From NCBI RefSeq assembly GCF_054482595.1, contig NZ_CM137008.1: a DNA stretch of 64,000 bases; one strand, 5' to 3'. Below, in pieces: positions 14,081-50,935 of this stretch (positions within the stretch are counted from its first letter, which is position 1; each line of letters starts with the position of its first letter). The translations under genes and the position numbers were made by a program. Below the pieces are notes generated by a model. It was not told the DNA's origin and did no database searches. It worked only from the letters and a program-made list of their open reading frames with translations.

Positions 14081-15721
14081 TCACACCGTAGCGAAACTAA
14101 CTGGTTCACCCGCTCCGCGAGGTTCTGCCGACACAGAATGTTTGTGCAGACGGAATACATCCACCGCCTCAGTTAATCGTGCCGCCTGTTCTTCAAGGGA
14201 CACCGCCGCCGCTGAGGCCTCTTCTACCAGAGAAGCATTCTGTTGCGTCACCTTATCCATTTCAGAAATCGCCTGGCTAACCTGCGTTATGCCCCTACTT
14301 TGCTCATCCGAGGCGGCGGCAATTTCCTGCATGATATGTGTGACACTCGCGACGGCATCAACAATAGTGCTCATGGTTTTCCCGGCCGTTGCCACCTCAT
14401 CCGATCCCAGGTCAATTAACCTGACTGATTCACTGATCAAGCCTTCAATTTCTTTTGCCGCCTGGGCGCTGCGGCTTGCGAGTGTCCGTACTTCGCTGGC
14501 GACAACGGCAAATCCACGCCCTTGCTCACCCGCTCGCGCAGCTTCAACGGCAGCATTCAGTGCCAGAATATTCGTCTGGAAAGCAATACTGTTGATGACG
14601 GCGGTGATCTCAGAAATTTTCTTCGAACTCGTGGAGATAGCGCCCATCGTTTTTACTACACCGGAAACCGTCTGCCCGCCATCGCTGGCTTTAATAGAAG
14701 CCTCTTGCGCCAGTTTACTGGCATAATGCGCATTATCCGCATTCTGTTTCACCGTCGCAGTGAGTTGCTCCATGCTGGCGGCAGTTTGTTCAATTGCCGC
14801 CGCTTGTTCTTCGGTGCGAGATGAAAGGTCCGCATTGCCAGCGGAAATTTCGCTGGTGCCACGATAAATCTCTTCCGCGCCCTGTCGAACAGTCCCTACT
14901 GTCATCCCCAGTGAATGCTGCATTTGCTGTAAATGACGACTTAAGCGACCGATTTCATTACGACCCGCCGGTTCATCATTCATCGTCAGATCGCCACTGG
15001 CGATTTTTTCAATCCGTTGTGCGGCATGTTGCAGTGGACGAATGACGATCCGACGTAGCACCATAAATGTTATCAGCGTCATGACCAGGGCAAGCACAAA
15101 CGCGCCAATCATAAACATCCCACCCAGGCTGGTGCGCTGATGGGCCAGTTCCGCCAGTTGGTTGGCTCTGGTGCTACGTATCTTAACGGCTTTGTTCAAA
15201 ATATCGGTATAAGCATTATCCAGCGTTCGGATCTGCTCACTTTCATGATTGATAATCGCTTCAAACATGCCATTTTTGGCATATTTCATCATAGGTTGCA
15301 TACCCGTGATATAAGCCTGGAAGCGTTGATTTAATTCAGTGTCTAGGGCTTCATCAGCAGGTGTTTTCACCGGCCGATTCTGATAAGCACGATAACCTTG
15401 CTGCGACTGTTTAATCTCCGATTCGGCTTGCGTAATATTTCGCTTCATTGCTTCCATTTCCGCAATACGACTCGCAGCCCCGGCCTGAATCATATTGATC
15501 CGGGCTGAACGCAAAAAATCTGAACTGTTCGCTAACCCGGTCCGAATCTCAATCTCCGCAGTAACATCACGCTGATCGCGATCGGCCTGCCAGAGGAAAT
15601 AGCCAGCCAGGGCTGAACTTAATGCGAATAGAACTAAGATACCGCCTAGAATGCAGGCAAATAACGGAACCAACCTGATGTGATGCAAAAAACCTAATCG
15701 CTGTGAGGGAGTTGTATTCAT
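14081..15721 (-). CDS. trg: Methyl-accepting chemotaxis protein III (ribose/galactose sensor)
   Basis: 546-aa ORF with HAMP and conserved MCP signalling domain. Confidence 0.9.
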
Positions 15722-15760
15722 TACCGTTGTCTCTCGTCCAGGTTTACTCCTGATAGAAAG

Positions 15761-15787
15761 TCATCGGCATTTGACGGTAATTACTTA
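15761..15787 (-). promoter_or_regulatory. Candidate sigma28 (FliA) promoter of trg
   Basis: Minus strand reads TAAGTAAT-N11-GCCGATGA about 40-65 nt upstream of trg start; close to sigma28 consensus TAAAGTTT-N11-GCCGATAA. Confidence 0.5.
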
Positions 15788-16016
15788 CGACTAAAAGCCT
15801 CTTTGCGTCACATTTTTACAACAATTATTGCAGAGAAGATTAATGCCATTGGAATGAAGAGAGTAACGAATGGTTAAACTGGCTAACCCGAATGACGAAA
15901 AATTCTGGAAAACAGCACGCAATTTCGTCAGGTGATTATTTTCGTCCCTAAGGAAACCACATAGGATGCTCACGGGTGCCTGAGACTTTCTGTTTTCAGG
16001 CTAACCGGGAATCAGA

Positions 16017-16061
16017 AAGACGAAGGCCCCGACCGATATTTCTATCAACCGAGGCCAACGA

Positions 16062-16072
<11 letters not shown>
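16017..16072 (-). ncRNA. sokB: sokB antisense RNA of the hokB/mokB locus; position inferred, boundaries approximate
   Basis: Placed antisense to the mokB translation-initiation region by analogy with hok/sok architecture; no independent sequence recognition. Confidence 0.35.
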
Positions 16073-16269
<197 letters not shown>

Positions 16270-16340
16270 GGGCAAGCGCGGGGATTTTCCCCGCGCATCT
16301 GACTAGCAGATTCATTTTCTCATGGCACCCCTTTTACACT

Positions 16341-16514
16341 TCAGTTAGTGCATGTTTTTTTCGATGCACTAATAGAACCATCATTACAGACAAATTTGCC
16401 GCCTGCCGTACAGTGTGAGATCCCCCCTTTCGAACCAGAACAGGGTTTGCGCCCGGCATCGGCATAAAAGGAAACAAGCGTTCCCATAAACAAAATAAGT
16501 GCCAGTTTTTTCAT
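16341..16514 (-). CDS. ydcA: Small secreted protein YdcA
   Basis: 57-aa ORF MKKLALILFMGTLVSFYADAGRKPCSGSKGGISHCTAGGKFVCNDGSISASKKTCTN; below track cutoff. Confidence 0.8.
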   Translation of the reverse strand: MKKLALILFMGTLVSFYADAGRKPCSGSKGGISHCTAGGKFVCNDGSISASKKTCTN

Positions 16515-16684: not shown

Positions 16685-16748
16685 CTTCCGATGTAGACCC
16701 GTATTCTTCGCCTGTACCACGGGTCGGTTTTAGTACAGGCGTTTTCTT
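16685..16748 (+). ncRNA. rydC: RydC small RNA (Hfq-dependent, pseudoknot-forming)
   Basis: 64 nt CTTCCGATGTAGACCCGTATTCTTCGCCTGTACCACGGGTCGGTTTTAGTACAGGCGTTTTCTT matches the RydC sequence as I remember it; ends in hairpin plus U-tract. Confidence 0.8.
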
Positions 16749-17477: not shown

Positions 17478-18479
17478 ATGAGTAAAGTTGGTATTAACGG
17501 TTTTGGTCGTATCGGTCGACTGGTGTTGCGTCGATTACTTGAAGTCAAAAGCAACATAGACGTTGTCGCTATTAATGATCTTACTTCCCCAAAAATTCTC
17601 GCCTATCTGCTGAAACATGATTCAAACTATGGTCCGTTCCCCTGGAGCGTTGATTTTACGGAAGATTCACTTATCGTTGATGGGAAAAGTATCTCGGTTT
17701 ACGCCGAAAAAGAGGCTAAAAATATTCCGTGGAAAGCGAAAGGTGCAGAAATCATTGTCGAATGTACTGGCTTTTATACCTCCGCCGATAAATCGCAGGC
17801 GCATCTTGATGCTGGTGCGAAGAAGGTGTTGATTTCCGCTCCTGCCGGTGAAATGAAAACCATCGTTTATAACGTTAATGACGACACTCTGGATGGCAAC
17901 GATACCATTGTTTCCGTGGCGTCATGCACCACTAACTGCCTTGCGCCGATGGCCAAAGCCTTGCATGACAGTTTCGGGATAGAAGTCGGCACGATGACGA
18001 CCATTCATGCCTATACTGGCACCCAGTCACTGGTGGATGGCCCGCATGGTAAAGATTTACGTGCTTCACGCGCCGCGGCAGAAAATATCATTCCCCACAC
18101 TACGGGCGCGGCAAAAGCCATTGGTCTGGTGATCCCGGAACTGAGCGGCAAACTGAAAGGTCATGCGCAACGCGTGCCGGTGAAAACAGGTTCGGTCACT
18201 GAACTGGTATCGATTCTCGGAAAAAAAGTGACTGCCGAAGAGGTGAATAACGCACTTAAACAAGCAACCACCAATAACGAGTCATTTGGTTATACCGATG
18301 AAGAAATAGTCTCTTCCGATATCATTGGCAGCCATTTCGGTTCGGTGTTTGATGCCACGCAAACGGAAATTACCGCCGTGGGCGATTTACAACTGGTGAA
18401 AACGGTCGCCTGGTACGATAACGAATATGGCTTCGTCACGCAGCTTATTCGCACCCTCGAAAAATTCGCTAAACTCTGA
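17478..18479 (+). CDS. gapC: Glyceraldehyde-3-phosphate dehydrogenase GapC, intact 333-aa frame
   Basis: [19 protein letters not shown]..., catalytic SCTTNCLAP motif; continuous ORF. Confidence 0.9.
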
Positions 18480-25322: not shown

Positions 25323-25937
<615 letters not shown>

Positions 25938-49801: not shown

Positions 49802-50935
49802 ATGAAAAGCAAAGTACTGGCACTTTTAATTCCTGCCCTGCTCGCCGCAGGTGCTGCACATGCAGCCGAAGTTTATAATAAAGACGGCAACAAATTAGAT
49901 CTGTATGGCAAAGTTGATGGCCTGCATTATTTTTCTGATAATTCAGCGAAAGATGGCGACCAGAGCTATGCGCGTCTGGGTTTTAAAGGCGAAACCCAAA
50001 TTAACGATCAACTTACTGGCTACGGTCAATGGGAATACAATATTCAGGCAAACAACACTGAATCTTCAAAAAACCAGTCATGGACCCGTCTGGCATTTGC
50101 CGGACTGAAATTTGCAGATTACGGTTCTTTCGATTACGGACGTAATTATGGCGTAATGTACGACATCGAAGGCTGGACCGATATGCTGCCTGAATTTGGC
50201 GGTGACTCTTATACCAATGCAGACAACTTTATGACTGGTCGAGCCAATGGCGTCGCGACTTATCGTAATACTGATTTCTTCGGTCTGGTAAATGGTCTGA
50301 ACTTCGCGGTGCAGTATCAAGGTAACAACGAAGGAGCCAGTAATGGTCAGGAAGGCACCAACAACGGACGTGATGTTCGCCATGAAAACGGTGACGGCTG
50401 GGGTCTTTCCACAACATATGATTTAGGCATGGGCTTTAGCGCTGGTGCGGCATACACATCTTCTGACCGCACCAATGACCAGGTTAACCATACTGCGGCG
50501 GGTGGTGATAAAGCAGACGCGTGGACTGCTGGGCTAAAATACGATGCTAACAATATTTACCTGGCAACCATGTATTCAGAAACGCGTAATATGACCCCGT
50601 TTGGCGACAGCGATTATGCTGTTGCAAACAAAACCCAGAACTTTGAAGTCACTGCACAGTACCAGTTTGATTTTGGTCTGCGTCCGGCAGTCTCTTTCCT
50701 GATGTCTAAAGGCCGTGACCTGCACGCTGCCGGTGGTGCAGACAACCCGGCAGGTGTTGATGATAAAGATCTGGTTAAATACGCCGATGTTGGCGCGACT
50801 TACTATTTCAATAAAAACATGTCCACCTATGTTGACTATAAAATCAACCTGTTGGATGAAGATGACAGTTTCTACGCTGCCAACGGCATCTCTACCGATG
50901 ATATTGTCGCTTTAGGTCTGGTTTATCAGTTCTAA
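49802..50935 (+). CDS. ompN: Outer membrane porin OmpN (OmpC/F family)
   Basis: 377-aa ORF with signal peptide [21 protein letters not shown] and C-terminal ...GLVYQF. Confidence 0.9.

Follow-up and report, generated by a model that had tools for sequence, protein, structure and literature searches.

Among described sigma-28 promoters, two kinds lie closest to the one considered here. The canonical class 3 promoters (tar, fliC, motA, flgM and tsr) share their sigma factor, their -10 core and the spacing of their elements with trg, and like trg they lose expression in a fliA deletion (PMC4183435). Scored on the same weight matrix, they reach about 20-29 bits as against 16.6 bits for trg. The aer promoter studied by Hollands et al. 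(2010) resembles trg in its whole architecture, which runs from a 22-mer CRP site through a 6-bp gap, the -35 element and an 11-nt spacer to the -10 element. Each of the two promoters drives a chemoreceptor gene, and each has an imperfect core, with GCCGACAT as the -10 of aer and TAAGTAAT as the -35 of trg. They differ in where the imperfection lies, as aer combines a good -35 (TAAAGATA) with a weaker -10 whereas trg shows the reverse. They also differ in the CRP site, which in aer has two recognisable half-sites (TGCGA..TCAAA) and matches the consensus at 17/22 positions, while in trg only the left half is recognisable, with 13/22 matches. Primer extension placed the start of aer transcription at the 6th base after the -10, and CRP is positioned at -49.5, intermediate between Class I and Class II (PMC2859248). 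Activation was lost when the CRP site was moved to -41.5, -44.5 or -54.5, and only sigma-28-independent activity was left when it was at -61.5; these data suggest that CRP acts at aer by recruiting the sigma-28 polymerase (PMC2859248). The placement of the alpha-CTD and the effects of shifting the CRP site have been dissected at aer only.

The trg promoter is itself already known for E. coli K-12, with its sigma factor, start site and CRP co-activation all published. This promoter (trgp1 of RegulonDB; trg100 of Hollands et al. 2010) is the orthologous locus of the one described below. A FliA ChIP-seq peak lies upstream of K-12 trg, with the motif TAAGTAATTACCGTCAAGTGCCGATGAC and a fold-above-threshold score of 23 (PMC4183435, Table 2). 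Zhao et al. observed in arrays that trg was 2.0-fold down in a fliA mutant and 2.2-fold up on induction of sigma-F (PMC1935009). The start of trgp1 in RegulonDB, a C located by high-throughput mapping, is the 9th base after the -10 and hence 2-3 nt farther than at the other sigma-28 promoters of that table, where it is the 6th-7th base (PMC4183435, Table S3). Hollands et al. found expression of a trg100::lacZ fusion to be sigma-28-dependent, observed binding of CRP to the trg fragment in vitro by gel shift, and showed that CRP activates the fusion even with plasmid-supplied FliA, a situation in which activation is uncoupled from sigma-28 levels (PMC2859248). The same study stated that the spacing between CRP and the promoter elements is identical at trg and aer (PMC2859248).

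The DNA that we analysed is a stretch of 64,000 nucleotides (the window) of E. coli chromosome; the 501 nt around the trg promoter are 100% identical to several RefSeq strains, and the local gene order is aldA, gap(C), cybB, ydcA, hokB, trg, ydcI. The trg CDS occupies 14081..15721 on the minus strand and encodes methyl-accepting chemotaxis protein III (546 aa), according to its open reading frame and to the RefSeq annotation of a strain 100% identical over these 501 nt. The original prediction, made from the sequence alone, had placed a near-consensus sigma-28 promoter for trg at 15761-15787, with an N11 spacer and at the expected distance upstream of the gene. On inspection of the sequence, the coordinates and the N11 arrangement proved exact. 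The strand of the motif, left unstated in that prediction, is the minus strand, which also carries the trg CDS. The -35 octamer TAAGTAAT (15787..15780), which takes the -35 position in the FliA ChIP-seq motif, is followed by the spacer TACCGTCAAAT (15779..15769), which by count is exactly 11 nt as in the sigma-28 consensus, and by the -10 octamer GCCGATGA (15768..15761), whose end lies 39 nt upstream of the trg ATG (15721). "Near-consensus" is apt for the -10, which matches GCCGATAA at 7/8 positions with the CCGA core intact, and too generous for the -35, which matches TAAAGTTT at 4/8 positions only. Alignment with the K-12 starts transfers the transcription start region to 15752..15755 (minus strand), where 15752 corresponds to the trgp1 start of RegulonDB and 15755 follows from the aer rule of the 6th base after the -10. 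With the trgp1 start, the 5' untranslated leader of trg spans 15722..15752 (minus strand, 31 nt), and a run of GAGAG 8-12 nt before the ATG is probably a Shine-Dalgarno-like sequence.

When the window was aligned with K-12 MG1655, both octamers, the length of the spacer and the distance to the ATG were identical, as were the whole 5' leader and, in the CRP site, the left half (TGTGA). Within the 99 nt from the CRP site to the trg ATG there are four single-base differences: an A in the window for a G in K-12 at 15770 of the promoter spacer, two in the 6-bp gap between CRP site and -35 (15788 and 15791), and a C for a T at position 19 of the CRP 22-mer (15797). All four spare the conserved positions of the sigma-28 elements. 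A 1-nt deletion in the -35 of the window had been suggested by the form TAAAGTAA, with an extra A, in the text-recognised supplement on trg100 (PMC2859248). We rejected this candidate, as the extra A is a text-recognition error and the real K-12 sequence has octamers identical to those of the window. The functional data all come from K-12, and the sequence identity leads us to expect that the window strain behaves like K-12. The assignment of the site as a class III flagellar, sigma-28 promoter of trg agrees with the K-12 ChIP-seq peak, the loss of RNA in the fliA deletion, trgp1 and the lacZ fusion. The comparison with a fliA mutant that had been proposed as a check has, in effect, been published for K-12 and upholds the prediction: trg RNA falls from 108 to 4 in the fliA deletion, a significant, 27-fold decrease (PMC4183435, Table 2), and the K-12 start maps 9 nt after the -10.

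What the original prediction overlooked is the part played by CRP, the sugar-starvation regulator. Of all matches to the CRP consensus between trg and hokB, the best is the 22-mer AAATGTGACGCAAAGAGGCTTT at 15815..15794 (minus strand), with 13/22 positions as against at most 10 for every other one. Its left half is a perfect AAATGTGA, with TGTGA at 15812..15808, and the core of its right half agrees with TCACA at 0/5 positions. In the window, 6 bp (TAGTCG) by direct count separate the 22-mer from the -35 octamer, and the count in K-12 aer is likewise 6 bp (ATCGGT). The centre of the site lies at -49.5 relative to a start at 15755 and at -52.5 relative to 15752. Direct activation of the trg promoter by cAMP-CRP is supported, and by analogy CRP would be expected to work at trg by recruitment, as at aer.

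We examined the conservation of these elements in a genome scan with the N-terminal (ligand-binding) domain of Trg, which returned 14 species-level loci; these belong to Escherichia, Enterobacter, Leclercia, Superficieibacter, Pseudenterobacter and one unclassified metagenome-assembled genome. Owing to overly strict peptide patterns, Salmonella and Citrobacter are absent from the 14 loci. Together with the window and K-12, these loci gave a footprint of 16 sequences, anchored on the -10. The block TGCCGATGAC, found at 15761-15770 and in the orthologues and extending past the -10 octamer, does not vary in any of the sequences (16/16, drawn from at least five genera), and this holds for its non-consensus G too. 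Also invariant in all 16 are the TAA of the -35, which keeps its place in a fixed 27-nt frame, and a block of TTTT shortly before the -35. The 11-nt spacer, in contrast, is fixed in length and varies freely in sequence among species, as does the -35 octamer outside the TAA. A TGTGA half-site is present in every one of the 16 sequences, 1 nt farther upstream outside Escherichia: its distance from the TTTT block is 12 nt in those other genera compared with 11 nt in Escherichia, and therefore any CRP site would be 1 bp farther from the promoter there. Such a pattern is what a working sigma-28 promoter preceded by an activator site should show, and the phylogenetic footprint confirms that selection has acted on exactly these elements.

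We are accordingly left in very little doubt that the interval 15761..15787, read on the minus strand, forms the core of trgp1, and that trgp1 is an aer-type promoter which depends on FliA and is co-activated by CRP. RNA polymerase with FliA (sigma-28) would recognise GCCGATGA as the -10 and TAAGTAAT as the -35, 11 bp apart, and would initiate some 6-9 nt past the -10, at about 15755-15752, so that the leader measures about 31 nt. The promoter is intrinsically sub-optimal because its -35 is weak and one base of its -10 departs from the consensus. Assistance by cAMP-CRP would come from 15815..15794, 6 bp upstream of the -35 and centred at about -49.5, an uncommon arrangement that aer was the first promoter to reveal. 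As a FliA-dependent promoter would be active only at the class 3 stage, when FliA is free of FlgM, the ribose/galactose chemoreceptor Trg would be made only then, and it would be made more strongly when glucose is absent. As a discovery this has little value, since the promoter was published for K-12 and the window carries the same elements; what the analysis offers is that a call made earlier from sequence alone was correct and that its missing CRP half has been added.

A different reading of the motif is that it resembles a degenerate consensus merely by chance and that trg is transcribed from another promoter. Taken by sequence alone, the site is indeed unremarkable and not decisive. It matches TAAAGTTT-N11-GCCGATAA at only 11/16 positions, with 5 mismatches, and was not recovered in a search with the 16-position consensus that allowed up to 3 mismatches. 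The looser pattern TAAA-N15-GCCGATAA, with up to 2 mismatches, included the site among 18 matches and is not discriminating because of that number. We therefore used a weight matrix built from the 24 strongest FliA ChIP-seq sites (Fitzgerald et al. 2014) with trg excluded, on which the trg site scored 16.6 bits and had the dominant base at every one of matrix positions 20-25 (the -10). This is below the median of the strong sites, which is about 20 bits in the training set (28.7 bits for tar), and it is near the best score of 14.7 +/- 1.9 bits obtained in random 64 kb. By this score the trg site ranks 3rd of 128,000 window positions, after two intragenic sites, so that equally good matches are present inside unrelated genes of the window. 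Position, however, puts the site far beyond chance. The probability of such a score is 1.3e-6 per position, and the number of sites expected falls from 0.17 per 64 kb on both strands to 0.0004 for the correct strand of the 300 nt upstream of trg, which is where the site lies. The invariance of its elements in at least five genera, set against a drifting spacer, and the ChIP-seq peak, the 27-fold drop in RNA and the mapped start in K-12 also argue against coincidence, and we regard a chance match as extremely improbable. A scan of 15650..16350 for sigma-70-like promoters found none, and a housekeeping (sigma-70) promoter was dropped as an alternative for trg. A match as weak as 11/16 can be trusted here only through its position, its conservation and the published ChIP and RNA data; elsewhere in the window, matches as good stand without such support.

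It could also be argued that trg has a plain sigma-28 class 3 promoter without a direct activator, at which CRP acts indirectly through flhDC and the level of FliA. The motif alone fits a sigma-28 promoter, and several features of the CRP site are in keeping with this proposal: its right half is non-consensus, which makes it effectively a half-site; one base of the 22-mer differs between window and K-12; TGTGA is shifted by 1 nt in genera other than Escherichia; and one E. coli strain, GPEC1176, is without the TGTGA half-site and has nevertheless kept the promoter and an intact trg. An indirect effect does not, however, account for the activation of trg100::lacZ by CRP in the presence of plasmid FliA or for the binding of CRP to the fragment in vitro (PMC2859248), nor for a geometry identical to that of the dissected aer promoter and the conservation of TGTGA across genera. 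We consider this proposal very unlikely, if a little less so than a chance match, and retain direct co-activation by CRP of a FliA-dependent promoter.

The sub-optimal features of the promoter, namely the G of GCCGATGA and a degenerate -35 (TAAG/TAAT...), have been kept in at least five enterobacterial genera, together with the TGTGA half-site and the TTTT block upstream. The invariant non-consensus G in TGCCGATGAC may reflect selection for a sub-optimal, activator-dependent promoter. We raise only tentatively, and with more doubt than conviction, the broader idea that selection keeps the promoter sub-optimal, that dual control of the ribose/galactose chemoreceptor by FliA and cAMP-CRP is ancient, and that the weakness of the core makes the activator necessary. 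On this idea, the 1-nt shift of TGTGA in Enterobacter, Leclercia and their relatives would mean that CRP can activate a sigma-28 promoter from about -50.5 as well.

The two higher-scoring sites lie within genes. In the window three sites reach at least 16.5 bits, compared with the 0.17 expected. One of the other two, TAAAGATCTGGTTAAATACGCCGATGTT at 50764-50791 (plus strand, 17.2 bits), is in sense orientation near the 3' end of an OmpN-like porin ORF (49802..50935), and the other, CAAATTTCACATCGGTAATGCCGATAAA at 25818-25845 (minus strand, 16.8 bits), is antisense inside an AzoR-like ORF (25332..25937). The host genes of both are absent from the published K-12 FliA ChIP-seq list. Each may be a weak FliA promoter inside a gene, or a match by chance.

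One part of the original prediction, that the motif marks the edge of the hokB/sokB region, is only approximate. By open reading frames and K-12 annotation, hokB lies at 16120..16269 and mokB at 16062..16229, both on the plus strand; K-12 annotation places sokB at 16016..16072 on the minus strand, where a terminator-like hairpin (16056..16025, minus strand) fits its 3' end, and the Rfam sok model matches 15974..16125. The nearest part of hokB/sokB is ~190 bp from the trg -35, or ~150 bp if the hokB promoter is allowed for, so that roughly 150-190 bp of other sequence lies between. In Enterobacter cloacae (L009), the only non-Escherichia locus for which open reading frames were listed, a gene for an adhC/frmA-like dehydrogenase comes before trg. 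The terminator-like hairpin of this gene has the same place in Enterobacter, Leclercia and Pseudenterobacter, directly before TGTGA, and no hokB/sokB was seen upstream of trg in the stretches inspected of Enterobacter cloacae and related loci. The similarity of non-Escherichia trg upstream regions to E. coli fades near window position 15849, which suggests that the ancestral upstream region of trg runs to about this point. As the hokB/sokB locus lies at or beyond about 15974, we rejected the promoter as a boundary of a hokB/sokB insertion: it would be located inside an ancestral trg regulatory region of ~130 bp and would therefore be a neighbour of hokB/sokB, not its junction. The small new support that this comparison across genera contributes, which we consider only mildly new, consists of the invariant TGCCGATGAC, the conserved TGTGA and the independence of the promoter from hokB/sokB.

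Two neighbouring features were observed in passing. The RydC small RNA (16685-16748, plus strand) is present at full length between cybB and ydcA, with 92.5 bits for Rfam RF00505. Farther on, a gapC-type glyceraldehyde-3-phosphate dehydrogenase ORF (17478-18479, plus strand) is intact at 333 aa and carries the annotation "gap" in a strain whose 501 nt around the trg promoter are 100% identical to those of the window; in K-12, gapC is a pseudogene.

Within E. coli, the 99 nt of promoter and leader are present as one copy at >=90% identity in 4499/5426 complete genomes, and even the most divergent of the sampled alleles show no change in the -35 and -10 octamers. The remaining 927/5426 genomes (about 17%) gave no match to the promoter and leader, a proportion that fits the reported absence of trg from many uropathogenic and phylogroup B2 strains. 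In E. coli GPEC1176 (L018, about 240-300), the sequence ceases to be homologous to that of other E. coli within the CRP 22-mer. Unrelated sequence takes the place of the TGTGA half-site and of everything upstream of it; trg and the sigma-28 octamers remain intact. This strain carries a natural "CRP-site deletion" allele, which possibly arose by insertion or rearrangement. An alteration on the other side of the core was seen in Enterobacter mori (L014, about 1260-1480), where an insertion of ~190 nt directly follows the conserved -10 (GCCGATGA at 1243) and precedes the start of trg. The inserted sequence (...CACCCCAGTCACTTACTTATGTAAGCTCC...) resembles an ERIC-type intergenic repeat, and the leader would be about 250 nt long if the promoter is still used.
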